DNA from: a virus | Taxonomy: Duplodnaviria; Caudoviricetes | Length of the DNA stretch: 64,000 bases | Virus record (IMG/VR): IMGVR_UViG_3300014204_013734 | Coordinates: 1 to 64,000 of that record | Direction: 5' to 3' (one strand) | Shown: one piece after another, positions 8,673-58,888 of the stretch | Position numbering within the stretch: the stretch's first letter is position 1 | How the letters are laid out: each line of letters begins with the position of its first letter | The notes under the pieces: model-generated | What the model saw: only the letters and a program-made list of their open reading frames with translations | Database searches by the model: none | Told to the model about the DNA's origin: nothing | Position numbers and translations under genes: made by a program

Positions 8673-8677
8673 AGGGC

Positions 8678-9587: not shown

Positions 9588-9588
9588 A

Positions 9589-10296: not shown

Positions 10297-10303
10297 TTGT
10301 TTC

Positions 10304-10332: not shown

Positions 10333-10379
10333 TTATTCAGAACAGGTTGGTAGAGGACACCAGTAGAAAGGAAACGGTC

Positions 10380-10748: not shown

Positions 10749-10764
10749 GGAAGGAGACGAGAAA

Positions 10765-10977: not shown

Positions 10978-11057
10978 TTTCAACTACGGTAGCTGCCGTA
11001 GGGCTTCCCCTTTGACTTGCTCACGAAACACCTGCTTTGCAGGCTAAATACCGATTC

Positions 11058-11086
11058 CGGCTTGGAATCCATTTCATTTCGGTAGT
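11058..11086 (+). promoter_or_regulatory. Phage promoter motif
   Basis: CGGCTTG-N15-CGGTAGT. Confidence 0.75.
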
Positions 11087-11116
11087 CCTTGTGTGGTTGG
11101 AAAGAAAGGAAAAGAA

Positions 11117-11317
11117 ATGGCTGAAAAGACAAAAGAAGAGCTTGCGGAAATTGCAGGGATTTTGAAAAAGAACTACATGTCCAAAAAGGACACTAGCAAA
11201 GTCCTGGATTTTATGTTTGGACCACCGTCAGATCAGCAGGTTGAATTATCCTTGTGGGGGGCGTGGGGGAACCTACGGGGAAAAAAGGAAAACGATGATG
11301 ACCATTCAAGAACTTAA
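11117..11317 (+). CDS. Hypothetical protein
   Basis: ORF after promoter motif and RBS. Confidence 0.6.
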   Translation: MAEKTKEELAEIAGILKKNYMSKKDTSKVLDFMFGPPSDQQVELSLWGAWGNLRGKKENDDDHSRT

Positions 11318-11525
11318 GGATGCCGTTGCATCCGCCCAAAAAGAACACGATACAGCTTTAGCTGCGTTGAGGACCCTTCCGACCTTGAATAAGGCACCGG
11401 GTCGCCCCTTTGACGATCCGGCAACCCGCCGGATTAAGTCGCAGTACCACCTGACTACGGTCAGGTTGAAGCAGGCGGAAGATGCCTTGGCGGAAGCCCT
11501 TCGGCAGTCCCCGTATGGGAGGTGA
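11295..11525 (+). CDS. Small coiled-coil protein
   Basis: MTIQELKDAV start. Confidence 0.65.
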   Translation: MMTIQELKDAVASAQKEHDTALAALRTLPTLNKAPGRPFDDPATRRIKSQYHLTTVRLKQAEDALAEALRQSPYGR

Positions 11526-11528
11526 CAA

Positions 11529-11945
11529 ATGACTGTCCAAGACCTTCATGCCAAATGGCACGAAAAGACTAATCTTTGGTGGGAAAAGGCCGAAAAAGTT
11601 CTTGCCTTAGAATTAGAAAGGGATGAAGGCAAGAGCCAGAATTTCATCGCCGCCGTAAAGGAGTGGGGTACCGCTTGGATCCAGGTTCAGGAATCCTTTT
11701 TTGCTTGGCGTTCCGCTTGGGCTGAACCCGAGGAACAAGAAAAGCATTCCTTAGGAACGGCCGAAGAAGCGGATGAGACGGTGCAAAAGAAGTGGAAAGT
11801 GTTGCTCTTGGCATCCGAAGTAGTAGATATGACCGGAACGGTCCATGATGCTGCGATGGTCAAGTTGCGGAAGGCAGAAGCGGAGTGGCAAGAGGCGTAT
11901 CAGGCGGCGAGAGTAAGAAACAGAAAGAATAGGAAAAACCAATGA
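11529..11945 (+). CDS. Coiled-coil hypothetical protein
   Basis: GGAGGT RBS; 138 aa. Confidence 0.7.
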   Translation: MTVQDLHAKWHEKTNLWWEKAEKVLALELERDEGKSQNFIAAVKEWGTAWIQVQESFFAWRSAWAEPEEQEKHSLGTAEEADETVQKKWKVLLLASEVVDMTGTVHDAAMVKLRKAEAEWQEAYQAARVRNRKNRKNQ

Positions 11946-12235
11946 CAAAGACTGAATTTGACAAGATGGCGGACATGACCTCCGAACCGAGCCCGTTGGC
12001 CCGCCTGTACAACATGGAATCTGAACTCGCCCAAATCGTCCAGTTGTTCAAGGACAACAAGGTCTTGGCAAATCCCCTGCAGGAAGTCACGAAAGCATTG
12101 TCCAAAGTCTGCCGCACGGCACACCCGTGTTTTGGGTGCGGCACGGAAACCTGTAAATTGGCCACTCCGGCGCCCCTGTTCACGCCGGTCGTGGACGGCG
12201 TCCAGAAGTCCGTGTGCCCGTACAAGACACTTTAA
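11942..12235 (+). CDS. Cys-motif protein, paralog of 8013-8672
   Basis: CRTAHPCFGC. Confidence 0.75.
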   Translation: MTKTEFDKMADMTSEPSPLARLYNMESELAQIVQLFKDNKVLANPLQEVTKALSKVCRTAHPCFGCGTETCKLATPAPLFTPVVDGVQKSVCPYKTL

Positions 12236-12241
12236 GGTTTC

Positions 12242-12270
12242 CGGCTTGTAATCTCTTTCCTTCCGGTAGT
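12242..12270 (+). promoter_or_regulatory. Phage promoter motif
   Basis: CGGCTTG-N15-CGGTAGT. Confidence 0.75.
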
Positions 12271-12470
12271 CCTTCTGTGATTGATAACCAAAGGAAGAAA
12301 AAAGTGAACGAAGCCACAGAAGCAGAAAACGAAGCAACAAGCCAGGAACTGGAAGAGTTGCTTCAGTTGTTGGATGACTGGGATGACATGGAAAAGCCTT
12401 CCTTAGCGGAACTGACCTTGGGCATAGAGGTCAGTCTCCAGCACTTGCAGGATAAGGTGTCGGAAAATCA

Positions 12471-12911
12471 ATGAAACGGGATATCCTCGTTCTAAAGGAA
12501 AAGCATGGTCTCCGCTATTTGGACGCCCGCACTCCTAAACTCATTTGTAAAAACGTTCTACGGGTCCTGAGAGACCGGTTGGATTTCGGTTGTTACGGGG
12601 ATGGGACCATCACCCCCCTTCCGCAACCTCCGAAACCGCTGCCTTTTCCAGAGTTCCCCGATTCCAAAACTGTAGAAGAATGGTTGGAAGCTTCCCGGAA
12701 GATATTGGACGACTATTCATGGGCGTTCCGATGTCATTATCATGAAGCCCAGGAAGCAAAGTTCCGGCAACAGGTGATCGCGTGGGTCGCCGCTCCGGAG
12801 ACGTTCCGTGACTGTGATGCACGTCTTGCGTTGAAGACCCGCCGAGACCATGAATACGAAGGTTACGAATGGGAAGAATTGGAAACCTGCGCCGATGAAA
12901 AAAGGGAATAG
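12471..12911 (+). CDS. Hypothetical protein
   Basis: 146 aa ORF in the operon. Confidence 0.7.
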   Translation: MKRDILVLKEKHGLRYLDARTPKLICKNVLRVLRDRLDFGCYGDGTITPLPQPPKPLPFPEFPDSKTVEEWLEASRKILDDYSWAFRCHYHEAQEAKFRQQVIAWVAAPETFRDCDARLALKTRRDHEYEGYEWEELETCADEKRE

Positions 12912-12913
12912 CC

Positions 12914-13504
12914 GTGAACGTATATAACAAAGCTAGGGTCGTGAAAAGTGATCGTGTTTACCCCATGGGGGCTAAATACGAAGTTGATGTTACGACAATT
13001 GGCCCATGGACGGATAACCTTCAGGTCCTTGAAAAGAATCTATCCGATGAAGCTGTTTTGAACGGTTGCAAGCAGCACAATCTTCATATCGGACCCTATC
13101 CGCCTGGGGTTGAAGATATACGATGGGGTAAAACGTATTCCCCATTCACCGTACAGCACATGTATGCCCTGATTGATCCCACAGGTCTTGTGGAATATTG
13201 GGCGATTCTGTCCAAGGAAGCTGAATACGAACTTCCATGGCGAAAAATGCACTGTACCTGCAACCGAGTAGGTAATGCCCTAAGTGATGTCCGTGCCAAC
13301 TTGGAGGCTATGCTTTTAACCCAAAGGAAACACCAAGGCCAGGCGGACTTTGAAAAGATGTGCCTTGTCAATTCAATTGACCGGCTCATCAAGGCAAGTG
13401 AAACGCTGAAGAAAGTTGTAAACAATCATTACGAATACACCGAAGAACCAGACCCTGATTCAAATCGTAACGGCTGGACAACCACTTTGGGTTCTGAATA
13501 TTAG
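12914..13504 (+). CDS. Hypothetical protein
   Basis: 196 aa ORF in the operon. Confidence 0.7.
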   Translation: MNVYNKARVVKSDRVYPMGAKYEVDVTTIGPWTDNLQVLEKNLSDEAVLNGCKQHNLHIGPYPPGVEDIRWGKTYSPFTVQHMYALIDPTGLVEYWAILSKEAEYELPWRKMHCTCNRVGNALSDVRANLEAMLLTQRKHQGQADFEKMCLVNSIDRLIKASETLKKVVNNHYEYTEEPDPDSNRNGWTTTLGSEY

Positions 13505-46281: not shown

Positions 46282-47130
46282 ATGGGCTACAAAGGGACGT
46301 TGCAACGTACTGATTTTGGGGATCGGATGAAAATGCTTGAATCAGGTACATCCGACCGCCTGATGCCTTTAGTGCCCGTCCTCGCCCGATTGGACGGACG
46401 GTCATTCCATTCCTTCTGTAAAGGGTTGCGCAAACCCTTTGACCCGTTCTTTGGAGTGGCCATGCAGCAAACTGCCGAATGGTTGGTTAGAAAGACGGGA
46501 GCCCTTGCAGGTTACACCCAATCGGACGAAATCACACTAATGTGGTTTTCCGACGATCCTACTAGCCAGAAGGTGTTTTTTGACCGGCGTCTCCTGAAAA
46601 TGGTTTCCGTACTTGCATCTTTAGCTACCGTCCGTTTCAACCAGAAATTCTCCGAAAACTGGCCAGATTTCATTGATCCGGAAAACCCGCCCGTGTTTGA
46701 CTGCCGCGTGTGGGTCGTCCCCAATAAGGACGAAGCAGCAAATTCCTTCTTGTGGAGGATCGAAGATGCCAAAACCAACAGCATCCAAGCGTTGGGGCAG
46801 GCCAACTTTTCCCACAACCGACTCCAGGGAATGAAGAACGGCGAAATCGTCGCCGCCTTGTTGTCGGAAAAGGGGATCAACTGGAATTTCCTGCCACAAC
46901 AATTTCGGTTTGGGACATTCATACAGAGGAAAACAGTCGTCCGCCCCTTCACCCATGAGGAATTGGAGAGGCTTCCCAAAAAGCACGAAGCCATAACCAA
47001 CCCAGGGCTCCTGGTTGAACGGTCGGACGTAACTACCATGCCCATGCCGGACTTCGGAAAAGTACAAAACCGCGTAGGGGTCCTGTTCAACGGGGAAGCC
47101 CCGATCATGCGCACGGAAACGTGCCCCTAA
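46282..47130 (+). CDS. tRNA(His) guanylyltransferase Thg1-like protein
   Basis: RLDGRSFHSF; YTQSDEI; FDCR. Confidence 0.9.
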   Translation: MGYKGTLQRTDFGDRMKMLESGTSDRLMPLVPVLARLDGRSFHSFCKGLRKPFDPFFGVAMQQTAEWLVRKTGALAGYTQSDEITLMWFSDDPTSQKVFFDRRLLKMVSVLASLATVRFNQKFSENWPDFIDPENPPVFDCRVWVVPNKDEAANSFLWRIEDAKTNSIQALGQANFSHNRLQGMKNGEIVAALLSEKGINWNFLPQQFRFGTFIQRKTVVRPFTHEELERLPKKHEAITNPGLLVERSDVTTMPMPDFGKVQNRVGVLFNGEAPIMRTETCP

Positions 47131-47366: not shown

Positions 47367-47705
47367 ATGAGGAATCTGCAAACGTTGAAGAGTGAAATAA
47401 AGACCCAACTGACGAGGTTGGAACAGGATGCAAGTCTGTTACGGTTAGCCTTGCGCAGCCTGGAAGGCAGTACCGACCCGACAGTTGGCAGAAATAGCAG
47501 GAATAGCAGGAACCGGAAGACAACCCTTTCGGTGATCATGGACATCATCGCTACGCAACCTGCCAAGGCTACGACCCGCTACCTTCTTCAGAAGGTTTCC
47601 GCCGAAGCCCGCGTCAAGACAGGAACCGTAACCATGGCTTTGTGGCATGCCAAAAAGGATGGGTTGCTGTCCAAGGTCGGAACTACGTGGCGGCGCACAA
47701 AGTGA
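47367..47705 (+). CDS. Hypothetical DNA-binding protein
   Basis: 112 aa, basic. Confidence 0.6.
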   Translation: MRNLQTLKSEIKTQLTRLEQDASLLRLALRSLEGSTDPTVGRNSRNSRNRKTTLSVIMDIIATQPAKATTRYLLQKVSAEARVKTGTVTMALWHAKKDGLLSKVGTTWRRTK

Positions 47706-48268
47706 AGAAGGTATGTGGAATCTATGGCGGGGGTTTCAATCCCCCGCACATAGGTCACGTCATGGCGGTGCAGCACGCATTGCTGTTCGGAAAAATGGAT
47801 TCCGTCCGGGTTTTCCCGTGTTGGAGGCATGCTTTCTCCAAAGATGTCGACCTAGTTCCGTTCAAAGACCGTGTCGAAATGGCCCGGTTGGCGTTTGTCG
47901 GGGATCCCAGGATTGTCGTTGATGATTTGGAAATCCGATTGTGGACATGCCACACAATTGATCTCATTAAAAGTGTAAAGGAAACAGAACCGGAAACGGA
48001 TTTTGTCCTAATCATCGGGTCGGACAACCTTGCCGTTTGGCAGAAATGGCACCGTTGGCAGGACATTGATCGGATGGTTGGAAAATTCATCGTACCGAGA
48101 CAAGGGTCAACGGATTCTCCTTGGGCTATTCCGGATATCAACAGCACGGAAATCCGGAAATGGATTTCTGAAAACGAATGGGAAAAAGTCGAAAAAACGG
48201 TCCCCCCTGAAGTGGTGGCTTTTATCAGAAACAAAGGGTTCTGGCAGGGACAACTACGCAAAGACTGA
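47702..48268 (+). CDS. nadD: Nicotinate-nucleotide adenylyltransferase
   Basis: GGGFNPPHIGH; IIGSDN; WHRWQ; INSTEIR. Confidence 0.9.
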   Translation: MKKVCGIYGGGFNPPHIGHVMAVQHALLFGKMDSVRVFPCWRHAFSKDVDLVPFKDRVEMARLAFVGDPRIVVDDLEIRLWTCHTIDLIKSVKETEPETDFVLIIGSDNLAVWQKWHRWQDIDRMVGKFIVPRQGSTDSPWAIPDINSTEIRKWISENEWEKVEKTVPPEVVAFIRNKGFWQGQLRKD

Positions 48269-48280: not shown

Positions 48281-48778
48281 ATGGAAGACAACTACCTTGA
48301 AATGGAAGATGGTTTGTATCTGCGAACGATTGGGCCTTTTTTCATCACCGATAAATTCCCGGACCTCCCAGGTGTGTATTGCTTGAACGGTCCTTGGAAA
48401 TCCGTAGTGCGTGTTTCTGGTTGTGAATCAGGGGCGATTATAATCACGGTCCTATTGGATCCGAAAATTGCCAAAGAACACCAAGTCTTGTTGGACAAGT
48501 ACCAACAGGATTTAGAAAAGTGGCCAGAAATGGTTCGGATATGGGAATCCACTACAGACCACAAAATGGGATTTTTCAAGACCGAACGCCCGAAGGAACC
48601 CGTACCGCCACCCAAGATGGGAATAAAAATAGCGGTCTTGTATGCGGATGACAAAGAGCCCTTCAAGGTTCGGGGAACCTTAACTCCGATAGGGGTTGTG
48701 GATGACACACATTTCTTCAACGTCACCGACGAATTGGAACCTCCTTCCGACTTTTTTGGAAGGCTTTTGGGGCGATGA
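48281..48778 (+). CDS. Hypothetical protein
   Basis: 165 aa ORF. Confidence 0.65.
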   Translation: MEDNYLEMEDGLYLRTIGPFFITDKFPDLPGVYCLNGPWKSVVRVSGCESGAIIITVLLDPKIAKEHQVLLDKYQQDLEKWPEMVRIWESTTDHKMGFFKTERPKEPVPPPKMGIKIAVLYADDKEPFKVRGTLTPIGVVDDTHFFNVTDELEPPSDFFGRLLGR

Positions 48779-48797
48779 AAATTTTTTCATTTTTTTC

Positions 48798-48826
48798 TTG
48801 ACATTCACAAAACCCTGTGTAATAGT
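48798..48826 (+). promoter_or_regulatory. Sigma70-type promoter
   Basis: TTGACA, then TAATAGT 16 bp downstream; T-rich upstream element. Confidence 0.55.
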
Positions 48827-48958
48827 GGATTTGTTGTTAGGGTTTTGAGGAAAATGAAATGGAATCAGTTGGAACAACCTTCGGCGGTAGGAAACCAAAT
48901 GGCGGGCATACCGCCATCGTGAACCCCGCCGTCGCGTCAGCAGAACGCGATCCAAATA

Positions 48959-48987
48959 GCTTTCCCCACGTAGATGGGGATGATCCG
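48959..48987 (+). repeat. Solitary type I-E CRISPR-repeat-like unit 1
   Basis: GCTTTCCCCACGTAGATGGGGATGATCCG, 29 nt. Confidence 0.6.
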
Positions 48988-49036
48988 GGAGTTCCTGGCA
49001 TGTAGCGTCTCGTCGCAAAGCACGGACAGGCGCCAC

Positions 49037-49067
49037 AGAAGCCGGGAACCGAAAGTTCCCGGCTTCT
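49037..49067 (+). terminator. Hairpin terminator-like element
   Basis: AGAAGCCGGGAAC-CGAAA-GTTCCCGGCTTCT. Confidence 0.65.
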
Positions 49068-49083
49068 CACGTTAAAAAAGAAA

Positions 49084-49112
49084 CGGCTTGGAATTTGAAT
49101 CTTCCCGGTAGT
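49084..49112 (+). promoter_or_regulatory. Phage promoter motif heading the tRNA array
   Basis: CGGCTTG-N15-CGGTAGT. Confidence 0.75.
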
Positions 49113-49210
49113 TGAAATCGGGAACAGTTATTTGACAACTGAATAGAACAACGACATGACAATGACGAGGGTGGCAGGTTTGCCACCTGTCACCCTCGTT
49201 TTCTATTGTG

Positions 49211-49283
49211 GTGGACGTAGATCAATTGGAAGATCGACAGACTGTGGCTCTGTAGGTTGCGGATTCGAACTCCGTCGTCCACA
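49211..49283 (+). tRNA. tRNA-His(GUG), no CCA
   Basis: Cloverleaf; anticodon arm ACAGA-CTGTGGC-TCTGT. Confidence 0.9.
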
Positions 49284-49284
49284 C

Positions 49285-49370
49285 GCCTGACAAACCCAAG
49301 CAGCCTCTCCGTGGCGTCAGGCATCAACCCGTGGAACCTGCCAAATAGGTTCACGGGGCCAAACGCTTGG
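49285..49370 (+). ncRNA. HDV-like ribozyme 1
   Basis: P1 GCCTGAC/GTCAGGC; P2 CCAAGC/GCTTGG; P3 GCC/GGC; J4/2 GCCAA. Confidence 0.85.
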
Positions 49371-49400
49371 AAATAAAATAATTCACTAGGCAGAAATCGT

Positions 49401-49476
49401 TCACCCTTAGCTCAGCGGTAGAGCGACGGGCTGTTAACCCGTGTCAGCACAGGTTCAATCCCTGTAGGGTGATCCA
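49401..49476 (+). tRNA. tRNA-Asn(GUU), CCA encoded
   Basis: Cloverleaf. Confidence 0.9.
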
Positions 49477-49488
49477 ATTTTTATCCAT

Positions 49489-49562
49489 AGTGACGAAGCC
49501 GAAGGAGTCGAGGCACCGGCCCGTCAAGCCGGATGAAGCGGGGGCGGGTCCCGTCGTCACTG
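49489..49562 (+). tRNA. Atypical tRNA-Asp(GUC), no CCA
   Basis: Stems intact; C33; T-loop GGCGGGT; G73. Confidence 0.7.
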
Positions 49563-49643
49563 GTCTGGTAAATCAAGCAGCCTCCACGTTGGCACCAGAC
49601 GGTAACCTACTATCCTAAGAAGAAGTAGGGCTAATTGCTTGAT
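49563..49643 (+). ncRNA. HDV-like ribozyme 2
   Basis: P1 GTCTGGT/ACCAGAC; P2 TCAAGCA/TGCTTGA; L3 TCCACGTT; GCTAA. Confidence 0.85.
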
Positions 49644-49690
49644 CAAGAATTTTTTGAATACTCTGAGAAAGGGTGGGTAGCTCCCATCCC

Positions 49691-49795
49691 GGAATCTGGA
49701 ACAACTGACCCGAAAGGGCGGTTCACCCAACAACCAGACTCTGACAAGGCTGGCGAGGTGGCAGAGACTGCAGGAACACTGTCGTTCCAGATTCC
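49691..49795 (+). ncRNA. Unassigned structured RNA
   Basis: 12-bp closing stem GGAATCTGGAAC/GTTCCAGATTCC with internal hairpins. Confidence 0.5.
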
Positions 49796-49807
49796 AAATT
49801 TTTTGAC

Positions 49808-49884
49808 CGGGGTGTAGGGAAGTAGGTATCCCACCTGGTTTGGGACCAGGAAACTCGCGAGTTCGACCCTCGCCACCCCGACCA
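49808..49884 (+). tRNA. tRNA-Pro(UGG), CCA encoded
   Basis: Cloverleaf. Confidence 0.9.
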
Positions 49885-49897
49885 TTTTTGATTCAAA

Positions 49898-49971
49898 CGG
49901 ACCGTGGGGCAGTCTGGTAGCCCGCGTGAATGGGGTTCACGAAGTCGCTGGTTCAAATCCAGTCGGTCCGA
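49898..49971 (+). tRNA. tRNA-Pro(GGG), no CCA
   Basis: Cloverleaf. Confidence 0.9.
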
Positions 49972-50059
49972 ATCCGATGATCCAAGCAGCTTCCACGATA
50001 GCATCGGATGTCAACCTGACAGAACCTTTTTCAAGGGGTTTCAGGGCTAATCGCTTGGG
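49972..50059 (+). ncRNA. HDV-like ribozyme 3
   Basis: P1 ATCCGAT/ATCGGAT; P3 GCT/AGC; GCTAA. Confidence 0.85.
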
Positions 50060-50066
50060 AAATAAT

Positions 50067-50143
50067 CCGACACTGGCCTAACCCGGTAAGGTGCGTGCTT
50101 CGGGAGCACGAAATTCCCGATTCAAACTCGGGGTGTCGGACCA
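50067..50143 (+). tRNA. tRNA-Pro(CGG), CCA encoded
   Basis: Cloverleaf. Confidence 0.85.
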
Positions 50144-50199
50144 TTTTTGGGTAAAAACAAGGAATTCCTTGTGGGATTTACTTTGTAAGGAACTGAGTT

Positions 50200-50760
50200 A
50201 TGGCAAGGACAAGTGTAATTTATAATCTTTCAACAGAAGAATTCAAAACTGTTGTAGAAGAAGCCTTTACAATGACGGACATATTAGAAAAATGTGGTCT
50301 TCGTCCTGTGGGGTCTAACCGAAAAACCGTTCAACGCAGGGCAGAAAAAGAAAATGTATCGCTAAAACATTTGAAAAGCATACAGGGAAAAAGACCATCC
50401 CAAGCAATCCCCTTGGAAAAAACAATGACGGAAGATTCTTCTTATAAAAGCAGCCGTCTAAAAGAGAGATTGGTCAAATTAGGTATTTTGACTGACCGGT
50501 GTTCCATTTGTGGCCAAGCCCCTGTTTGGAACGGTAAGCCTTTAGTGCTTCATTTGGATCATATCAACGGAAACCATGAAGACAACCGATTGGAAAATCT
50601 TCGGATTGTGTGTCCTCATTGCGATTCTCAACTACCCACGTACAAAGGGAGAAACAAGTACCACGCCCCTAAACCCAGATGCGATTGCGGGGCTGTGAAA
50701 AGCCGACCTTCAAAACACTGTCGGAAGTGTGAAGCTAAAAACCGAATTAAGAGATCGTAG
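50200..50760 (+). CDS. HNH homing endonuclease
   Basis: LHLDHINGNHEDNRLENLRIVCPHCDS. Confidence 0.9.
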   Translation: MARTSVIYNLSTEEFKTVVEEAFTMTDILEKCGLRPVGSNRKTVQRRAEKENVSLKHLKSIQGKRPSQAIPLEKTMTEDSSYKSSRLKERLVKLGILTDRCSICGQAPVWNGKPLVLHLDHINGNHEDNRLENLRIVCPHCDSQLPTYKGRNKYHAPKPRCDCGAVKSRPSKHCRKCEAKNRIKRS

Positions 50761-50826
50761 CTCAACTGGTAGAGCAAGTGGCTTTTAACCACTAGGTTGA
50801 GGTTTCGAGTACCTCCGATCTCACCA
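50751..50826 (+). tRNA. tRNA-Lys(UUU), CCA encoded
   Basis: Cloverleaf; overlaps the HNH stop codon. Confidence 0.9.
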
Positions 50827-50836
50827 TTTCTAATAT

Positions 50837-50898
50837 GCGGACATCGTCCACTCTTTACTGGCGGGAATACCGCCATCACGTTGAAGCTGCCCGCTCCA
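50837..50898 (+). ncRNA. Short tRNA-like element (Gly-like acceptor, U73, CCA)
   Basis: GCGGACA...TGCCCGC-T-CCA around a TGGCGG/CCGCCA hairpin. Confidence 0.45.
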
Positions 50899-50905
50899 AT
50901 TTTTT

Positions 50906-50981
50906 GGTCCCGTCGTCTAGTGGCCCAGGACGCTGGCCTTTCACGCCGGAAACACGGATTCGAATTCCGTCGGGACTACCA
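50906..50981 (+). tRNA. tRNA-Glu(UUC), CCA encoded
   Basis: Cloverleaf. Confidence 0.9.
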
Positions 50982-50994
50982 TTTTATTTTTTCA

Positions 50995-51023
50995 CGGCTT
51001 GGTTTCTTTTCCTGTTCGGTAGT
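50995..51023 (+). promoter_or_regulatory. Phage promoter motif heading the Y RNA/Ro60 unit
   Basis: CGGCTTG-N15-CGGTAGT. Confidence 0.75.
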
Positions 51024-51086
51024 ATGCGCGTGAAGCAGATTTTTCAGTGAAGCAGCTTCGGGTATAAGCAGAAGGTCTTTGAAAAA

Positions 51087-51156
51087 TGTCGGGGTGTGCA
51101 GTTTTCGGATACTTCATTGTCAAGAAAATACCGAAAACGATCAGTTGACCCCGACA
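51087..51156 (+). ncRNA. Y RNA-like 1 (short)
   Basis: Terminal stem TGTCGGGG/CCCCGACA; GTGCAG...TTGACC. Confidence 0.65.
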
Positions 51157-51166
51157 ATCGTTCTTT

Positions 51167-51243
51167 GCTTCCAGGGTGCAGAATGCGGTTACTCCAGACT
51201 TGTCATCTGATCCCGTACCGTATTTGACCGATTGCCTGGAGGC
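51167..51243 (+). ncRNA. Y RNA-like 2 (short)
   Basis: GGTGCAGAATGCGGTTACT; terminal stem TCCAGG/CCTGGA. Confidence 0.6.
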
Positions 51244-51251
51244 TCAATTCG

Positions 51252-51404
51252 TGAAAGTGAAGGCGGTGTGCAGATGTGCGGTTACTTCACATTTGGGGTG
51301 GGAGGTCGTGGGTTCAAGTCCCACCTTGGCCTTCGGGTCAAGTAGCTCAGTCGGTAGAGCGCCAAAACGTTACCGTCATCGCCTGTTGATCGCCTTCACT
51401 TTCA
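51252..51404 (+). ncRNA. YrlA-like Y RNA 3 with permuted tRNA domain
   Basis: T arm GGTTCAAGTCC precedes D arm TAGCTCAGTCGGTAGAGC; long terminal stem. Confidence 0.85.
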
Positions 51405-51422
51405 AGTTGATCAGGTTTCCTG

Positions 51423-51562
51423 TAACCCGGGTGTGCAGAATGCGGTTACTTCGGAAAAAATCTGGATATGGGGGTTCAAATCCCTCTGGAAGCGCAAGTT
51501 TCCATCGTCTAATGATAGGACACCAGATGATAAAGTCCGCATCCGATTTTTGACCTGGGTTA
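51423..51562 (+). ncRNA. YrlA-like Y RNA 4 with permuted tRNA domain
   Basis: T arm GGTTCAAATCC precedes D arm TCGTCTAATGATAGGAC; terminal stem. Confidence 0.8.
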
Positions 51563-51594
51563 ATTTCCACCCTTACCTCAAAAGGAGGTGTGCC

Positions 51595-53394
51595 TTGAAC
51601 TTCAGTAAGAAGACGAAAACGGAAGCGGCTGTATCGGTCACCAACAAGGCTGGCGGGAAAGGCTATCGTGCCTCCTCGGCTTTGGACGCCCTCATCATGA
51701 AAGTGGGGAAGCCTGGATTTTCCGAACCCACTTACTACGGCGATCCCCAGGAATCCATCATGAAGAAAATGGGGGACCTGGAAGTCAACGTGGAAAACTT
51801 GACCGAAGAGGCAGTATCCATCCTTGAGGACATTGTCCTGGCGGTCAAGGATGCCGTGCACAGCAAGAAGCAAGACGAGTTGGCGGATGTCCTCCGTCTA
51901 GCTTGTTACCTGCGCAACGAAAACAAGATCAGGATGACCCCACAGGTCATTCTGGCCATGTGTTCAAAGATTCCGGCACTCCAACACCTGTGCCGGCTGT
52001 ATGCCCCGAAGATCGTCGTGCGGGCGGACGAAATCAAAGAAGCCTTTGCGGCTGCCCGCTTCCTGTTCAACCCGGTTTCCAAAGATGACAAGTACGGTCG
52101 TGCGTCCCATCATGGGACCATTTCCAAGTCGCTGAAGAAGGCTCTTGGGGATTCCTTCTCCCGTTTCCCGGAACGGGACTTCCTCAAGTGGGCAGGCAAG
52201 GGAGACATCAGCTTCAAGGATGTCCTCCTGATGTGCTATCAGGCGTTTGACGGAAAGTCCAGACCCGCCAATTGGCCAGTCAGTCCCGCCATGTGGCGAT
52301 GGTTGGTGTACGACGAAGTCAGTGAAGCCGTTCCCCAAGCTTTGGCTTGGGAACAGTTGAACAAGCTGGCTACCTGGGGTGAGGAAGCTCGTGAATTGGT
52401 CCGGAAGTCCGGGGCTACGTGGGAAGTCATTGCTTCCAAGTTCGGCGGATCCACCGATCCGAAGCAGGCTGCGGAAGTGTGGGAATGGCTTGCGACGGCA
52501 ACGACTACGGACGGAAACAAAACACGCCGTGTCATGCCTTATCAGGCAACCTTGATGAACCTGCGCAACTTCGCGGAAAAGGGCGTATCCAACAAGGCCA
52601 AGAATGAAGTAGCCAAGTTCTTGGTTGAAGCGGCTCCCCATTCCCGCATGTTGCCGATGCAATTCATGTCGGCGAGGAAGGCCGTTGAAGACCCCTTGTT
52701 CCAGAAGGCTATTGCAATGGCCATTGACGCCACTGCGGATAGTCTGCCGGGGCTGCTTGGGTCTACGGTCGTGGCAGTGGATACTTCGGGGTCCATGGAA
52801 ACGCCTTTGGTCCAACGTCAGAATACATACCGCGGCAAGACCCAGAATCCCATGACGGTGAAAGAAGCGGCGTGTCTGCTCGGGGCCATTTGTTACCGCA
52901 AGGCGGAAGGATGGGCCATTATCGGGGCACTGGCGTCAGGTTGGTCTCAAATCAAGGTCAGCCAAACTTCATCCGTCTTGGACGTGGCCAACATTGTCCA
53001 CGAACGTAACGTTGGAGCCGGAACTAACCTGGGGGACCTGTTTGCTACCCTCAAGCAACAGAAGACGATGCCTGACCGTATTATCCTTCTGACCGACGGT
53101 CAAAGCTGGATGGGCGAACGTTCCTGTTATTACGGGAGCACCAGCGGTTCCTGCAACGACAACATCAAGGCATACCGGTCGGCGGGGTGGACCGGGCACC
53201 TGCATGAAATCCACATGGTTCCTTACGAAACCACGGCGTCCGAACCCGACAAGAAGTGTCACGTGTTTTCCAGTTATTCCGAAAATCTGGTCAACATGGT
53301 GCGAGCTGCAGAAGGGCTGGAAGCCGAGTCCGAAAAGGTGGACACCTTCAACGTGGAAGCCTTCAAGGCTGAAATGCGAAAGCTGTATCCGTAG
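51595..53394 (+). CDS. Ro60/Rsr-like TROVE + vWA RNA-binding protein
   Basis: AAGGAGGT RBS and TTG start; YLRNE...VVRADE; MPYQATLMNLRN; VDTSGSM; LLTDGQ. Confidence 0.9.
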   Translation: MNFSKKTKTEAAVSVTNKAGGKGYRASSALDALIMKVGKPGFSEPTYYGDPQESIMKKMGDLEVNVENLTEEAVSILEDIVLAVKDAVHSKKQDELADVLRLACYLRNENKIRMTPQVILAMCSKIPALQHLCRLYAPKIVVRADEIKEAFAAARFLFNPVSKDDKYGRASHHGTISKSLKKALGDSFSRFPERDFLKWAGKGDISFKDVLLMCYQAFDGKSRPANWPVSPAMWRWLVYDEVSEAVPQALAWEQLNKLATWGEEARELVRKSGATWEVIASKFGGSTDPKQAAEVWEWLATATTTDGNKTRRVMPYQATLMNLRNFAEKGVSNKAKNEVAKFLVEAAPHSRMLPMQFMSARKAVEDPLFQKAIAMAIDATADSLPGLLGSTVVAVDTSGSMETPLVQRQNTYRGKTQNPMTVKEAACLLGAICYRKAEGWAIIGALASGWSQIKVSQTSSVLDVANIVHERNVGAGTNLGDLFATLKQQKTMPDRIILLTDGQSWMGERSCYYGSTSGSCNDNIKAYRSAGWTGHLHEIHMVPYETTASEPDKKCHVFSSYSENLVNMVRAAEGLEAESEKVDTFNVEAFKAEMRKLYP

Positions 53395-53396
53395 CA

Positions 53397-53425
53397 ATGT
53401 TCCCCACGTATGTGGGGGTGTTCCG
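53397..53425 (+). repeat. Solitary type I-E CRISPR-repeat-like unit 2
   Basis: ATGTTCCCCACGTATGTGGGGGTGTTCCG, 29 nt. Confidence 0.65.
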
Positions 53426-53515
53426 ACCCTGTGGGAGAATATGGGGACGCCCTTCTTTCACAGGATCTTCCCGTGGGTTTGGGGGACGCCTTAAACCCAC
53501 GGGATCTTTTCATGG

Positions 53516-53592
53516 CGGGCCGTAGCTCAATTGGTTAGAGCGCAGTCCTGATAAGGCTGAGGCCGTGGATTCAATCTCCACCGGCCCGACCA
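53516..53592 (+). tRNA. tRNA-Ile(GAU), CCA encoded
   Basis: Cloverleaf. Confidence 0.9.
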
Positions 53593-53630
53593 ATTCCGTT
53601 CTTTAGGGTAAGTGTTTGTGGATGATTTGA

Positions 53631-53703
53631 TGCGGAGTGGAGCAGCGGCTAGCTCAGCAGGCTCATAACCTGAAGATCGGTGGTTCGAGTCCATCCTCCG
53701 CTA
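53631..53703 (+). tRNA. tRNA-Met(CAU), initiator-like, no CCA
   Basis: Unpaired 1:72; TGGAGCAG D arm. Confidence 0.85.
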
Positions 53704-53785
53704 ACCCGACAATTCCAGACAGCCTCCACGACGGCGTCGGGTGTCAACCTACCTAAAAGCTAAGGTAGGGCTAATTGTCTTGGAA
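53704..53785 (+). ncRNA. HDV-like ribozyme 4
   Basis: P1 ACCCGAC/GTCGGGT; L3 TCCACGAC; GCTAA. Confidence 0.85.
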
Positions 53786-53822
53786 AAACGACCCCCCTGA
53801 TTTCAGCAAGGAACATGACAAA

Positions 53823-54206
53823 ATGACCCCTGATTTTGACATTGCGGATGTGAAAGCCCCGGAAGGAAGGTCCATCAAATTCACCATTAGGGAACGTTTC
53901 GGACCCCGGGTGTGGAAGATGACAACTGTACGGACCCAGGACGATTGGGATCCGGTCATTGAACCGATGCGGAAACCGGAAGACATGAAAGCCGGTATGG
54001 ATATCCTGATCTGGTTAGGACAAGACGAATGCGGCAGGGACCATTGGAGAACCGAAAAGGTTCTGGAAGACCCTGTGGGATCGTTCCATACCATCCCCCG
54101 TGAAGATTGTTTCAGGCCCTTGCAGTTTGATGAAGACCGGCAGAGCTGGATCGAAGGCGGATTCATCTACCTTCACGGTATGGAAAGACTGGAAACCATC
54201 AAATAA
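53823..54206 (+). CDS. Hypothetical protein (start uncertain)
   Basis: ATG inside the 53775-54206 ORF with AAGGA upstream. Confidence 0.6.
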   Translation: MTPDFDIADVKAPEGRSIKFTIRERFGPRVWKMTTVRTQDDWDPVIEPMRKPEDMKAGMDILIWLGQDECGRDHWRTEKVLEDPVGSFHTIPREDCFRPLQFDEDRQSWIEGGFIYLHGMERLETIK

Positions 54207-54229
54207 GCCCTATGGAAAGGTAAGGAAAA

Positions 54230-54745
54230 ATGAAAGTTTCAGGACAGGATTTGATTCAAGCCATCAAGGAACAGTCACACCTCCGGGACCTTACCGAAAC
54301 GGAGTTTGAAGGATCCTTGTATGCCTTTCCCAGCGAAAGCAAGGATTCCCCGGAACGGGTTATGGAACGGCTCCTTGACATTGAAACGACAATTGCAAAG
54401 CTCCAGGCAGCGCAAGGGTTGTACAACCAAAAGGTCAAAGTGACGGTGTCTGGTGAAAACCTCACTTTGGCCGAAGCCGTCAAACGTATCGGGGGTTTGG
54501 CCCGTGTGGAAGCCTGTTGGCGGAAAACGGCGAAGTCTGGAGGGGAAGATCAGTTATACGGGCGCCGCATGGAAAGACCCGCAGTGGCCGACACGGAATT
54601 CGCCAAAAAGATGATTGAGGCTAAGGTTGCCAACCAGAAGGCAAAGGAAACTGCCAAAACTGTGGCTAACCTGCGTTCGGCCATTCAGGCCGGAAACACG
54701 AAGAGGGTTGAAATTGAAGGTTTGGACCCGGACTGCTTTGTGTAG
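54230..54745 (+). CDS. DIP1984-like coiled-coil protein
   Basis: LQAAQGLYNQKV.V....LTLAEAVK...LRSAIQAGN. Confidence 0.6.
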   Translation: MKVSGQDLIQAIKEQSHLRDLTETEFEGSLYAFPSESKDSPERVMERLLDIETTIAKLQAAQGLYNQKVKVTVSGENLTLAEAVKRIGGLARVEACWRKTAKSGGEDQLYGRRMERPAVADTEFAKKMIEAKVANQKAKETAKTVANLRSAIQAGNTKRVEIEGLDPDCFV

Positions 54746-54945
54746 TTCAGGTTCGGGATGCAAGTACCGCAAGGGAACGCGTCCAGACGTGGAAGACCAT
54801 TCAAATATACAGGATACGGATTCAATGACACCGCACCCCCACCTGATCCCAACGTCCCGATTGCTTAGGACGACAAAAGGGCATACTTGGTGTCGATCCG
54901 GATGCTCCCCTACTTCCTGCTTTCGGTCTTCCACGTTCTTGTCAA

Positions 54946-55018
54946 GGGGCTTTGGCGCAATTGGTAGCGCGTCTGCTTTGCACGCAGAAGGCAGGGGGTT
55001 CGAACCCCCCAAGCTCCA
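54946..55018 (+). tRNA. tRNA-Ala(UGC), no CCA
   Basis: Cloverleaf; G3-U70. Confidence 0.9.
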
Positions 55019-55099
55019 GTCCGACGATCCCAAGCGGCCTCCACGACGGCGCCGGATGGTTAACCTGTAGAAAGTTTCTGCAGGGCTAACAGCTTGGGA
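55019..55099 (+). ncRNA. HDV-like ribozyme 5
   Basis: P1 GTCCGAC/GCCGGAT (G-U first pair, one mismatch); GCTAA. Confidence 0.8.
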
Positions 55100-55131
55100 G
55101 AAATTTTCATGTCACAAGAAAGGAACCTGAA

Positions 55132-55332
55132 ATGATCCGTACCATTTGTAAAATGGCAATCAACACCCAAGACGACCTACCAGTTACCGACAAGGTGTTG
55201 TCCTTGGAAATTTTCCCAGTGAACAAGACTAACATGGTTTCCTTGTCCGTAGGGGATGAATTTTCCATTTCCGTAACGCTTGATGATCTGTATGCAGCGG
55301 TAGACGCTTTGTTTTCTTCACGCCCAGAATAA
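55132..55332 (+). CDS. Hypothetical protein
   Basis: AAGGA RBS; 66 aa. Confidence 0.6.
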   Translation: MIRTICKMAINTQDDLPVTDKVLSLEIFPVNKTNMVSLSVGDEFSISVTLDDLYAAVDALFSSRPE

Positions 55333-55429
55333 TTGGCCTAACATCCTTTTCAGGAAAAGGCTTCCAACGGAAAAGAGAAGGTTGACAGGGGCGTTGCATT
55401 GATGGACGCATGAAGGAAACAGCAAAAGA

Positions 55430-55645
55430 ATGGATGACAATCTAGACAGGGTTTTGGGTTTCTACGAACGGGCATTTGAGAAAATCCAAGAAAAGGTTTT
55501 CGGTCCTGAACTACGGGAACCCGTGGACCTGGAAACCATGAAACTCAGTATCCAAAGAGACTTGGGGGTTTCAGCCCAGGCAGTGGAACTGGTCCGTTTA
55601 GCTTTGGAACAAACGAAGAGCAAAACCAAGAAAGATTTGGTGTGA
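55430..55645 (+). CDS. Hypothetical protein
   Basis: 71 aa ORF. Confidence 0.55.
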   Translation: MDDNLDRVLGFYERAFEKIQEKVFGPELREPVDLETMKLSIQRDLGVSAQAVELVRLALEQTKSKTKKDLV

Positions 55646-55653
55646 TTTTCTTT

Positions 55654-55743
55654 GGAAGAGTCGCCTAGTGGCTTAGGGCGGCGGTCTTGAAAACCGCAGA
55701 TCCTTAACGGGATCCGAGGGTTCAAACCCCTCCTCTTCCGCCA
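55654..55743 (+). tRNA. tRNA-Ser(UGA), CCA encoded
   Basis: Long variable arm; G73. Confidence 0.9.
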
Positions 55744-55748
55744 AAATT

Positions 55749-55824
55749 TGGGCTGTAGCTCAGAGGATAAAGCAGCCGCCTCCTAAGCGGAAGATCGCGG
55801 ATTCGATTTCCGCCAGCCCAACCA
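55749..55824 (+). tRNA. tRNA-Arg(CCU), CCA encoded
   Basis: Cloverleaf. Confidence 0.9.
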
Positions 55825-55837
55825 ATTCCAAAACAAC

Positions 55838-55911
55838 CGGGGCGTAGTTCAGATGGAAAGAACACCGGCCTTCTAAGCCGAAAGTCGTGAGTTCAAGCCT
55901 CACCGCCCTGA
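55838..55911 (+). tRNA. tRNA-Arg(UCU), no CCA
   Basis: Cloverleaf. Confidence 0.9.
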
Positions 55912-55985
55912 ATCCGACGAACCTAAGCAACTTCCACGAAGTGTCGGATGTCAACCTGCAGAAACTGTAGGGCTAATCGCTTGGG
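55912..55985 (+). ncRNA. HDV-like ribozyme 6
   Basis: P1 ATCCGAC/GTCGGAT; P3 ACT/AGT; GCTAA. Confidence 0.85.
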
Positions 55986-56061
55986 AAATGATCCGTTCAA
56001 TGATTTCAAGGTAGGGTTTAGAAGTTCGTTCTTTGAAATACTTGAAAAGATACCTCATTTT

Positions 56062-56136
56062 GAGGGATTAACTCAGTGGTAGAGTGCCGGTCCTACAAAC
56101 CGGATGTCGGCGGATCGTTCCCGCCATCCCTCACCA
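56062..56136 (+). tRNA. Atypical tRNA-Val(UAC), CCA encoded
   Basis: C33; T-loop ATCGTTC. Confidence 0.75.
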
Positions 56137-56148
56137 ACCTATAACTAG

Positions 56149-56226
56149 CCGCCCGTCGCCCAACTGGAAAGGGCACCAGGCTACGAACCTGGAACAGTGG
56201 GGATTCGACCTCCTCCGGGCGGACCA
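56149..56226 (+). tRNA. tRNA-Arg(ACG), CCA encoded
   Basis: Cloverleaf. Confidence 0.85.
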
Positions 56227-56249
56227 TTTCATTCTGGGGGCTATCCAAA

Positions 56250-56278
56250 GTGTTCCCCACTTACGTGGGGCTGTTCCA
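56250..56278 (+). repeat. Solitary type I-E CRISPR-repeat-like unit 3
   Basis: GTGTTCCCCACTTACGTGGGGCTGTTCCA, 29 nt. Confidence 0.55.
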
Positions 56279-56303
56279 GGCGAGTTCAAACCTTGCCCCA
56301 GAT

Positions 56304-56376
56304 GCGGGAATAGCTCAGTTGGTAGAGCAATAGCCTTCCAAGCTATGGGCCACGGGTTCAAGTCCCGTTTCCCGCT
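56304..56376 (+). tRNA. tRNA-Gly(UCC), no CCA
   Basis: Cloverleaf; U73. Confidence 0.9.
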
Positions 56377-56463
56377 ACCCGGTCAAACCAGACAGCCTTC
56401 ACGACGGCGCCGGGTGTCAACCTGTGAATCCTTTTCAAAGGGTTTACAGGGCTAATGGTCTGG
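56377..56463 (+). ncRNA. HDV-like ribozyme 7
   Basis: P1 ACCCGGT/GCCGGGT; P2 CCAGAC/GTCTGG; GCTAA. Confidence 0.85.
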
Positions 56464-56476
56464 AAAACAATAATTT

Positions 56477-56551
56477 GCGAACGTAGTGCAGTGGTAGCAC
56501 GCAACCTTGCCATGGTTGAAGTCACGGGTTCAAATCCCGTCGTTCGCTCCA
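56477..56551 (+). tRNA. tRNA-Gly(GCC), CCA encoded
   Basis: Cloverleaf. Confidence 0.9.
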
Positions 56552-56563
56552 TTTTTTATTCAA

Positions 56564-56638
56564 AACCCTGTAGACTACCGACTAGGTCAGGAGCCCCTCA
56601 AGCTCCAGGAACGGGGTTGGCACCCGTCAGGGTTACCA
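56564..56638 (+). tRNA. Atypical tRNA with CUC anticodon (Glu), CCA encoded
   Basis: Stems intact; C33; T-loop TTGGCAC. Confidence 0.7.
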
Positions 56639-56641
56639 TAT

Positions 56642-56717
56642 GGGGCTGTAGCTCAGTTGGAAGAGTGCTTGCTTCGCATGCAAGAGGTCGGGGTTTCGAA
56701 TACCCCCAGCTCCACCA
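56642..56717 (+). tRNA. tRNA-Ala(CGC), CCA encoded
   Basis: Cloverleaf; G3-U70. Confidence 0.9.
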
Positions 56718-56720
56718 TTT

Positions 56721-57083
56721 TCATTCTTCCCAATCAGGTTCCCATGAAGCTTCAATTTCGGCATCGATGCGGGCCTGCCGGTGTTCCATCCGATGACAAT
56801 TGGGACAGAGGATTCGCAGGTTGTGCAGGCGGTTGTCATGATGGTCAAAATTGATGTGGTGGACTTCCAGGACTTCCGAACATAGGTCCCACCCGCAGCA
56901 ATCACACCTGTGGGGGTTGTTGCCGAAGGCGAGTTTCCTGTAGGACTTCAACTTCATGATCCGCCAGGACCGCCGATGCTTGCGGCAGCACCAAAACACA
57001 CCCGTTTTGGATCGGGCGATGGCAGCGGCAGTTCGGTAGATTGGTTTTCCACAGAAAGCGCATTGTTGGTTAGGATTGGGCAT
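56721..57083 (-). CDS. HNH endonuclease, antisense within the tRNA array
   Basis: LEVHHINFDHHDNRLHNLRILCPNCH. Confidence 0.85.
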   Translation of the reverse strand: MPNPNQQCAFCGKPIYRTAAAIARSKTGVFWCCRKHRRSWRIMKLKSYRKLAFGNNPHRCDCCGWDLCSEVLEVHHINFDHHDNRLHNLRILCPNCHRMEHRQARIDAEIEASWEPDWEE

Positions 57084-57118
57084 GTCAAGTTCCTTTCAGG
57101 GTAGAATACCCTGTTCGG

Positions 57119-57192
57119 TCTGGGATGGTCTAGTGGCAAGACTTTGGGCCTTGGACCCAAAAACGGAAGTTCGAACCTTCCTCCCAGAACCA
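57119..57192 (+). tRNA. tRNA-Gln(UUG), C33, CCA encoded
   Basis: Anticodon arm TTGGG-CCTTGGA-CCCAA. Confidence 0.85.
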
Positions 57193-57220
57193 TTTTCTTG
57201 AACCGAAAGGAAAACGAAAA

Positions 57221-57415
57221 ATGTCAACATGTAAAACGTGCGGAAAAACATGGACGAAAGACCATCCGGTTTCAAAATTCTGGTTCACATGCAAACCGGA
57301 TGAGGGAACCAGCGAAGGACATCCGTTTGACAATATGACAATCATCGGATACCCTAATTGCCGGCCAGACTGGCCCCCGCCGCCTGAATTGGAACCCATT
57401 TTCGGAGAAGGATAA
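57221..57415 (+). CDS. Hypothetical protein
   Basis: AAGGA RBS; CKTC. Confidence 0.6.
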   Translation: MSTCKTCGKTWTKDHPVSKFWFTCKPDEGTSEGHPFDNMTIIGYPNCRPDWPPPPELEPIFGEG

Positions 57416-58221: not shown

Positions 58222-58888
58222 ATGGAACAAAGGCTGATTGAAATCAGGGCCGCCGAAGGCGGGGAAGATGCCAAGTTGTTGGTCAACGACCAGTTAGGGG
58301 TGTACACGAAGGTGTGTGCCATCTACGGTCTTTGAAACCGAATACATTGACGCACGTCCGGGTTTTATCAGCTTTACGGTCACCGGGGAAAAGGTTGCCG
58401 TATTTGACCAGGAAGCAGGTGGCCACAGATGGCAAAGGGTCCCCCCAACCGAACGAAAGGGACGGGTTCACACTTCAACAATAACGGTTGCCGTTCTCCC
58501 GCTTCGTGAATCCGTGGAATGCCTTGATTTGAAGGATGTAGTGATTGAAACCACGAGAGGTTCGGGACCTGGCGGGCAGCACCGGAACATGACGGACAGT
58601 TGTGTAGTCGTCCGGCACATCCCGACAAAAATCTCTGTCCGAGTTGACATGCGGTCGCAACACCAAAGCCGACGCATGGCTTTGGCCATCTTGTCGGCTC
58701 GGTTGCAGGAACGGGAAGAAACGGCTTCCCTGGACGCTGCAAACAAACAGCGCAAAAGCCAGATCGGTTCTGGTCAGCGTGGGGACAAGATACGTACCTA
58801 CCGGACACAGGATGACCTAGTGAAGGACCACAGGACGGGCAAGAAGATGTCCCTGCACCGTTGGGTAGAAGGAAGATGGGATTGGTAA
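58222..58888 (+). CDS. Class I peptide chain release factor-like protein (RF1-type PxT, GGQ), made via +1 frameshift at 58330-58335
   Basis: Frame 0 IEIRAAEGGEDA ends CTT-TGA; +1 frame has EAGGHRWQRVPPTE.KGRVHTS, GPGGQ, KIRTY. Confidence 0.85.

Follow-up and report, generated by a model that had tools for sequence, protein, structure and literature searches.

The stretch of DNA analysed here (the window) comprises the first 64 kb of the 381,280-bp virus record IMGVR_UViG_3300014204_013734, a record of the Caudoviricetes that is classed as a 'provirus'. Within its transfer RNA (tRNA) island lie three hairpin units, U1, U2 and U3, each of which resembles a single repeat of a type I-E array of short palindromic repeats that are clustered and regularly interspaced (CRISPR). 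U1 precedes the gene for tRNA-His, U2 follows the gene for the RNA-binding protein Ro60, and U3 sits between the genes for tRNA-Arg and tRNA-Gly. All three measure 29 nt: after a lead of 5 nt comes a hairpin with a 6-bp stem (CCCCAC/GTGGGG) and a loop of four bases, and the last 8 nt form a tail; a preliminary description of this DNA had reported the units with the same lead, stem and tail, and its coordinates proved exact. In the following, we argue that U1–U3 are copies of a repeat that belongs to the phage itself and that they are candidate sites for the phage's own Cas6e.

The units stand out clearly from their surroundings. A degenerate 25-nt pattern, with up to three mismatches allowed, matched the 64-kb window at U1–U3 and nowhere else, against an expectation of 0.02 matches from shuffled sequences. 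A covariance model (R1), built from the phage units, three units of one relative and eight bacterial repeats, recovered U1–U3 at E values of 4e-13 to 4e-11 in the island and of 2e-11 to 2e-9 in the whole 381-kb record. The full-length repeat was matched on the plus strand only, which is the strand of all 21–22 tRNA genes and of Ro60, and the hairpins of all three units were present in the minimum-energy folds of their local contexts. When the full model was run over positions 48700–57300 with its filters off, no second or degenerate repeat appeared near the units below an E value of 0.6; U1–U3 are therefore truly solitary, without a full or partial repeat within about 100 bp, which is one of the features by which solitary repeat units (SRUs) and RNA anti-CRISPRs (Racrs) are recognised.

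Judged by their sequence, U1–U3 are genuine type I-E repeat units. They have the length of about 29 nt, the GC-rich stem of 6–7 bp, the tetraloop and the 8-nt 3′ tail of the ATGAACCG kind that mark such repeats, and individual phage units are identical at 24–27 of 29 positions to the repeats of bacterial and archaeal arrays. The preliminary description had held that the lack of a close match to real I-E repeats would speak against its proposal; since over 100 genomes of bacteria and archaea, spread across many phyla, have the core motif as the repeat of real I-E arrays with a 61-nt period, this objection fails. The units also belong to the same family as the repeat of ~61-nt-period arrays beside I-E cas genes, in this case the phage's own array, which lies directly 3′ of cas6e. 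The core motif was found in many IMG/VR contigs as well, and the lone units in these other contigs were not near tRNA genes; the tRNA context is therefore not general for the motif. The suggestion that a repeat search might point to the host came to nothing, as an exact search of the most canonical unit in species genomes returned no match. Likewise, none of 1627 spacers matched the phage; they were taken from ~120 loci, in bacteria and on viral contigs, whose repeats are of this type.

The absence of cas genes from the window, as recorded in the preliminary description, is correct for the window and also for the 381-kb record, against which profiles of Cas6e, Cas7e and Cas1 gave no match; it is not correct for the phage. 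A second copy of the Ro60 gene was found on the ENA contig k141_2421636, which has a length of 444,386 bp; its identity to the window amounts to 99.995% over a 21.8-kb stretch and to 99.99–100% across the comparisons. Of this contig, ~63 kb, located between the two ends of the record, are missing from the 381-kb record. This gap contains, in order, ~30 kb of tandem paralogous genes for proteins of ~190 amino acids, a few enzymes including an NAD-dependent ligase, and a type I-E cas operon. The walk through the gap genes rests partly on precomputed Pfam labels, whereas the cas genes were rescanned: cas3 (864 amino acids), cse1, cse2, cas7e, cas5e and cas6e all scored above the curated NCBIfam cut-offs for type I-E (6 of 6). 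A 2-kb CRISPR array of ~33 repeats follows directly 3′ of cas6e. Neither cas1 nor cas2 was present among the gene calls of the 63-kb gap, and the phage, with a genome of more than 200 kb, an effector module, an array and no cas1 or cas2, has the composition of the huge-phage CRISPR-Cas systems that lack an adaptation module.

We considered an assembly chimera as the source of the cas locus and rejected it, because the flanks are identical to the phage at 100% (one side to window positions 1–13095, the other to the last 2.9 kb of the record), the GC content of 51% equals that of the phage, and two further assemblies carry part of the operon, namely a Logan contig of 24 kb, on which it adjoins the same upstream phage genes, and a JGI contig of 26.8 kb, which encodes an identical Cas7e. 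The nearest non-self homologues of Cas7e, which come from many phyla, are just 36–42% identical, so the locus was not recently captured from a host. Most likely, the cas region looked 'host-like' and was lost when the public record underwent provirus trimming. The encoded Cas6e (11927–12556 of the cas-bearing locus, our L241) aligned over its full length with Cse3 of Thermus thermophilus (E 9e-23); both the glycine-rich loop at the C terminus and the catalytic PY.MH motif, with its Tyr and His, are retained. The Thermus I-E repeat has the same CCCCAC/GTGGGG stem. Two neighbours of the locus deserve mention in their own right. A PARP-domain protein is encoded after the CRISPR array (L241 14693–16357), and the ~30 kb of head-to-tail genes (contig ~337–365 kb; L234 13400–21400, L236, L237 and L238) encode more than 40 proteins of ~180–220 amino acids without a Pfam match, which looks like a very large tandem paralogue family.

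The array allows the question of whose repeat U1–U3 carry to be addressed. It is heterogeneous: the loop TTAC occurs ten times beside GCAA, GTAA, GTAT and others, the tails vary, and the spacers range from 9 to 64 nt, mostly 27–39 nt. Nevertheless, three positions form a signature, with T13 in 25, A14 in 28 and T26 in 29 of 31 repeats, and each of U1–U3 has all three. Among 118 bacterial and archaeal arrays with the same stem, by contrast, T13-A14 was found in 3 and T26 in 8, and the loops are 30% A+T. As this signature is shared with the phage array and rare in bacterial arrays, U1–U3 are, by this comparison, orphan copies of the phage's own repeat and not mimics of a host repeat. Further similarities agree with this assignment: the loop of U3 is the commonest in the phage array and that of U2 is also found there, the U1 tail occurs six times and the U2 tail twice in the array, U1 is identical to one array repeat at 26 of 29 positions, and a BLAST search of the array against the record returned exactly the dispersed units.

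The features around the units are collected in Table 1. A promoter-like site lies 5′ of U1, with its predicted transcription start ~125 nt before the unit. The hairpin beyond U1 is also real, as the preliminary description had stated in placing U1 between a sigma70-like promoter and a terminator, but it has no U-tract and is not called a terminator. U1 overlaps a predicted small open reading frame (ORF) and is perhaps not strictly intergenic, whereas U2 and U3 are. The Ro60 stop codon occupies 53392–53394, so that U2 does begin 3 nt after it, as had been noted; in the 3′ untranslated region (UTR), U2 comes first and is followed by a second hairpin, the terminator-like hairpin and then tRNA-Ile. 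The U1 leader showed no similarity to the leader region of the other tRNA block, but the coordinates of the latter were guessed and the comparison is uninformative.

Table 1. Repeat units and neighbouring features in the window, and the type I-E locus of the phage
Feature	Position	Strand	Remarks
sigma70-like promoter 5′ of U1	48798–48826	+	TTGACA, 17 nt, extended −10 (TG-AATAGT); 10/12 consensus matches; consensus match only
48-codon predicted ORF reading through U1	48859–49005	+	from gene callers; plausible GAGGA ribosome-binding site; no family match
U1, solitary I-E repeat unit	48959–48987	+	loop GTAG, tail ATGATCCG; loop-closing (top) pair of the stem mismatched (C-A)
Strong 13-bp hairpin 3′ of U1	49037–49066	+	not scored as terminator
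Ro60/TROVE gene	51595–53394	+	U2 in its 3′ UTR
U2, solitary I-E repeat unit	53397–53425	+	loop GTAT, tail GTGTTCCG
Terminator-like 16-bp hairpin with T-run	53469–53504	+	between U2 and tRNA-Ile
tRNA-Arg(ACG), encoded CCA	56149–56226	+	ends 23 nt before U3
Inter-tRNA module	56233–56302	+	6-bp closing stem (56233–56238 with 56297–56302) around the U3 hairpin and a second small hairpin; weak, fold z-score −0.9
U3, solitary I-E repeat unit	56250–56278	+	loop TTAC, tail CTGTTCCA
tRNA-Gly(TCC)	56304–56376	+	starts 25 nt after U3
Type I-E operon and array	L241 5398–14600 (ENA contig k141_2421636 ~386,668–395,870)		outside the window, absent from the 381-kb record

Several other elements of the island were noted in passing. 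U2 was considered as the Y RNA of Ro60 and rejected, as a match to YrlA (bacterial Y RNA-like) lies 5′ of Ro60 instead; this candidate phage Y RNA (51278–51379, plus strand) covers the whole model with 38.4 bits, against a family threshold of 69, at E 9.5e-6. One base after tRNA-His begins a match to a ribozyme resembling that of hepatitis delta virus (HDV-F-prausnitzii; 49285–49370, plus strand; E 1e-3, with 35.5 bits where the threshold is 44), and self-cleavage there, if the match is real, would make the 3′ end of tRNA-His. Between tRNA-Asn and the proline tRNAs, Rfam gave a low-scoring tRNA (49489–49562, plus strand, 38.9 bits) that ARAGORN did not report, possibly a degenerate or tRNA-like gene. 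The protein-coding genes of the island include a Thg1-like tRNA-His guanylyltransferase (46282–47130), a cytidylyltransferase-like protein (47642–48268), a short RF-1-domain protein (58316–58888) and two HNH endonucleases.

Outside the main array, the phage genome holds more copies of the repeat than U1–U3. A regular-expression scan and the covariance model both give exactly eight units in the 381-kb record, namely U1–U3 and five in tandem at 197039–197255. The latter form a mini-array with spacers of 15, 11, 21 and 25 nt between an exonuclease gene and a gene for a 399-amino-acid protein, and two of the spacers nearly match these flanking genes: one agrees at 24 of 25 positions with the sequence at 198040, its single mismatch falling on seed position 7, and the other at 19 of 21 positions with that at ~196358–196378. 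AAC and AAA, which resemble a protospacer adjacent motif (PAM), stand at the two matches. The mini-array is also bracketed by a 16-nt inverted repeat (197065–197080 against 197256–271, 15 of 16 positions, within the region 197039–197271 of the record). All eight extra-array units are on the transcribed strand, and none lies in a long ORF. Their loops and first 3 nt vary, but every unit retains the stem, the TT of the lead and the greater part of the tail. In the main array, spacer 3 (L241 12770–12802) matches the 3′ end of the phage's own cas6e (L241 12453–12485) at 31 of 33 positions with an AAG PAM, and the mismatches, at positions 11 and 27, are outside the seed. This spacer either poses a risk of self-targeting or is aimed at the cas6e allele of a rival. 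Such near-self spacers fit competition or conflict between near-identical phages.

We believe, with somewhat more confidence than doubt, that U1–U3 serve the phage's own Cas6e as sites. Transcription would make them parts of the tRNA-island RNAs: the leader before tRNA-His, the 3′ UTR of Ro60 and the spacer between tRNA-Arg and tRNA-Gly. Each hairpin would be bound by Cas6e, which is of the Thermus Cse3 type, and cleaved at the 3′ base of the stem, 8 nt before the unit ends, that is, between 48979 and 48980 in U1, 53417 and 53418 in U2, and 56270 and 56271 in U3. Each cut would yield an upstream RNA with a Cas6e-bound hairpin as its cap and a downstream RNA made up of the 8-nt 5′ handle of Cascade and flanking phage sequence. 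A further use of the cut RNAs, as guides and for exclusion, is the consequence that we favour, though only tentatively: the handle-tagged flank RNAs might be loaded onto the phage's Cascade as additional, non-canonical guides. At U3, cleavage by Cas6e together with ribonuclease (RNase) P at tRNA-Gly would produce an RNA of 33 nt with its end at 56303, consisting of the 8-nt handle and a 25-nt guide, because tRNA-Gly starts 25 nt after the unit. Guides of this kind would act against sister phages that have the same sequence without the inserted repeat, and the carrier's own copy would be protected because the repeat tail occupies the position of the PAM. Transcription, cleavage, loading onto Cascade and any targeting are steps that we infer.

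Guide use is made conceivable by what is reported of type I-E systems. Cascade works with CRISPR RNA (crRNA) made without Cas6e processing (PMC4499155), and handle-tagged I-E RNAs with 21–24-nt spacers and untrimmed 3′ tails accumulate in a Cas-dependent manner (bioRxiv 10.1101/2024.10.29.618823). The phage's main array itself already includes spacers of 23–30 nt. These observations, together with the near-self spacers, favour guide use.

A number of results weigh against this proposal. The tail of U3 deviates at two of eight positions, and U1 has the stem mismatch and may sit inside a translated small ORF. The triplets 5′ of the units are ATA, GCA and AAA, not all of which are good I-E PAMs, and U3 is the only unit with a downstream processing site at the distance of a spacer. 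No such units occur in the phage's other tRNA block. The preliminary description had suggested that the sequence after each unit might reveal targets; the flanks of U1–U3 gave no match in the phage genome, the 63-kb gap, the distant relatives, GenBank phages or any other locus fetched, and the flanks of U3, allowed a variable gap between them, gave none in metagenomes. Searches through the Ro60 protein in viral and metagenome contigs, and through Cas7e in viral contigs, found no sister phage with an empty or variant site, and main-array spacer 3 and mini-array spacer 4 had no match as exact patterns.

The main array had no match in GenBank phages or in the relatives, and the four assemblies of this phage, which are 99.98–100% identical, represent one genotype. 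The phage is present in landfill and groundwater samples (ERZ27247350, SRR6484787 and JGI 3300035208). Two loci encoding relatives of Ro60 (L221 and L222; 43–45% identity, GC content 36–40%) contain no units, nor were dispersed units found in three related IMG/VR records (G002–G004). Among these records, only the 322-kb G003 has a canonical mini-array, at 250529–250679 (L230 1439–1589, minus strand), which is of type I-E with a 61-nt period, three repeats and two spacers of 32 nt. The stem differs, through compensatory changes, in each of the three repeats, and no Cas7e was found in the part of this record examined.

In its furthest form, guide use would make each unit a 29-bp RNA-guided exclusion or homing element, in which one copy of the repeat turns the adjacent phage sequence into a Cascade guide; we regard this form as doubtful. 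At U3, Cas6e would generate the 5′ end of the guide and RNase P, acting at the tRNA that follows, its 3′ end, and a rival that was cut would be repaired from the carrier, whereby the repeat would be copied into the rival. In engineered tRNA–guide RNA arrays, processing of the flanking tRNAs releases the small RNA precisely. Marker exclusion in phage T4 centres on tRNA clusters, and the homing endonuclease SegB is located in the tRNA region of T4. The likeness to these arrays and to SegB-type homing endonucleases is conceptual only: the present island also contains its two HNH genes, but the unit itself includes no gene for a protein nuclease.

Other explanations start from the same units. The phage's own Cas6e might use them purely for processing or regulating RNA, without any guide function, as cleavage or binding sites that separate or stabilise transcripts: the terminator hairpin of Ro60 would be replaced by a Cas6e-capped end, for example, or the tRNA operon freed from its leader. 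In a variant of this explanation, the units would soak up Cas6e, a single-turnover enzyme, so that strong expression of the island would be accompanied by an adjustment of the phage's own CRISPR activity. All the evidence for recognition by the cognate Cas6e applies here equally, the units lie at transcript junctions (the operon leader, the 3′ UTR before the terminator-like hairpin and the inter-tRNA spacer), their flanks are without a detectable target, and, with near-self spacers beside a good PAM, the phage would have cause to hold its own system in check. Nonetheless, we consider this explanation unlikely, as tRNA operons are well processed by RNase P, RNase Z and RNase E unaided and the second tRNA block has no units; furthermore, we know of no natural precedent for Cas6e sites that serve in the processing of mRNA or tRNA. 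The preliminary description had proposed, as one of two options, that the units borrow Cas6e from the host to process the phage transcript. This idea came close as far as Cas6e processing sites are concerned; the enzyme would, however, be the phage's own.

Its other option, that the units are decoys of the Racr type, now appears less likely. Such decoys would sequester Cas6e or subunits of Cascade in a host, or in a rival phage, whose I-E system has a similar repeat, and cross-recognition is plausible because the stem and handle are common to many bacterial I-E repeats. The units are solitary and phage-borne with a promoter-like site 5′ of U1, and I-E Racrs are known from experiments (PMC10651486). 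Against this, the units follow the signature of the phage array and not that of bacterial arrays, no exact host repeat was found, and a comparison of eight small ORFs in the neighbourhood with PHROG gave no match, to a known anti-CRISPR (acr) family or otherwise. Above all, the phage carries a cognate cas operon and array, so that decoys would also poison its own system; an element free of cognate cas genes was the main support of the Racr explanation, which is lost here, and we judge it to be very unlikely. We think it quite unlikely, too, that the units are non-functional relics, copies scattered from the array by recombination or off-target spacer integration and tolerated in non-coding gaps. 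The small defects of U1 and U3, the distant relatives without dispersed units and the lack of evidence for conservation outside the single genotype would all agree with relics. Against relics speaks that eight of eight extra-array units preserve stem, TT lead and most of the tail although their loops and first 3 nt differ, and that the transcribed strand is used every time and long ORFs never.

Returning to U1–U3 as sites for the phage's own Cas6e, the closest known elements are the Racrs and viral SRUs of Camara-Wilpert et al. (2023; PMC10651486), which are likewise single, transcribable repeat copies on phages outside arrays, including I-E examples; the promoter-like site before one of the present units adds to the likeness. 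Racrs are intergenic, mimic the repeat of the host and its subtype, are found on elements without cognate cas genes, are expressed as small RNAs that inhibit interference as dominant-negative decoys and often adjoin acr genes (PMC10651486). The present phage differs in having a cognate I-E operon and array in the same genome and the signature of its own repeat, and two of its three units are embedded in longer transcripts (the 3′ UTR and the inter-tRNA spacer). Work by Faure and colleagues from 2019 is reportedly to be named alongside the Racr studies for viral SRUs.

The locus as a whole resembles the CRISPR systems without an adaptation module in huge phages (Al-Shayeb et al. 2020, reviewed in PMC11656645), which also combine a genome above 200 kb with an own array and a type I interference module in the absence of cas1 and cas2, and for which inter-phage competition is the proposed use. 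PMC10651486 and PMC11656645 describe neither lone copies of a phage's own repeat in a tRNA island nor an array as heterogeneous as this one, and no description of lone own-repeat copies inside a tRNA island was found in the literature searched. The mini-arrays of the viruses SPV1 and SPV2 (Medvedeva et al. 2019) and the 'Cracr' arrays (bioRxiv 10.1101/2024.10.29.618823) share a phage-versus-phage or phage-versus-Cas logic. U1–U3 do not have the two or more units around a matching spacer that characterise these arrays and fall outside both classes because they have no second repeat and no separate spacer; the five-unit cluster at ~197 kb, with its 11–25-nt spacers that nearly match neighbouring genes, fits them loosely and belongs near them.

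Lone phage repeats are currently read as decoys directed against the host, whereas those described here belong to the phage's own CRISPR-Cas system and lie inside its most heavily processed RNA operon. The case also indicates that calls of huge-phage records as 'Cas-less' can be wrong if the records have been trimmed, because provirus trimming in all likelihood removed the cas operon from the public record of this phage. If Cas6e does cut the units, then either a virus has taken this enzyme into service for RNA processing in general, or one repeat suffices to make a working guide from the neighbouring sequence, and either outcome, if true, would widen what counts as a CRISPR locus. With single-repeat guides, nature would have found a very compact way both to produce guides and to let phages compete in the manner of a gene drive, and, should the homing form prove true, the units would stand beside the homing endonucleases of phage tRNA regions as a minimal, protein-free equivalent.

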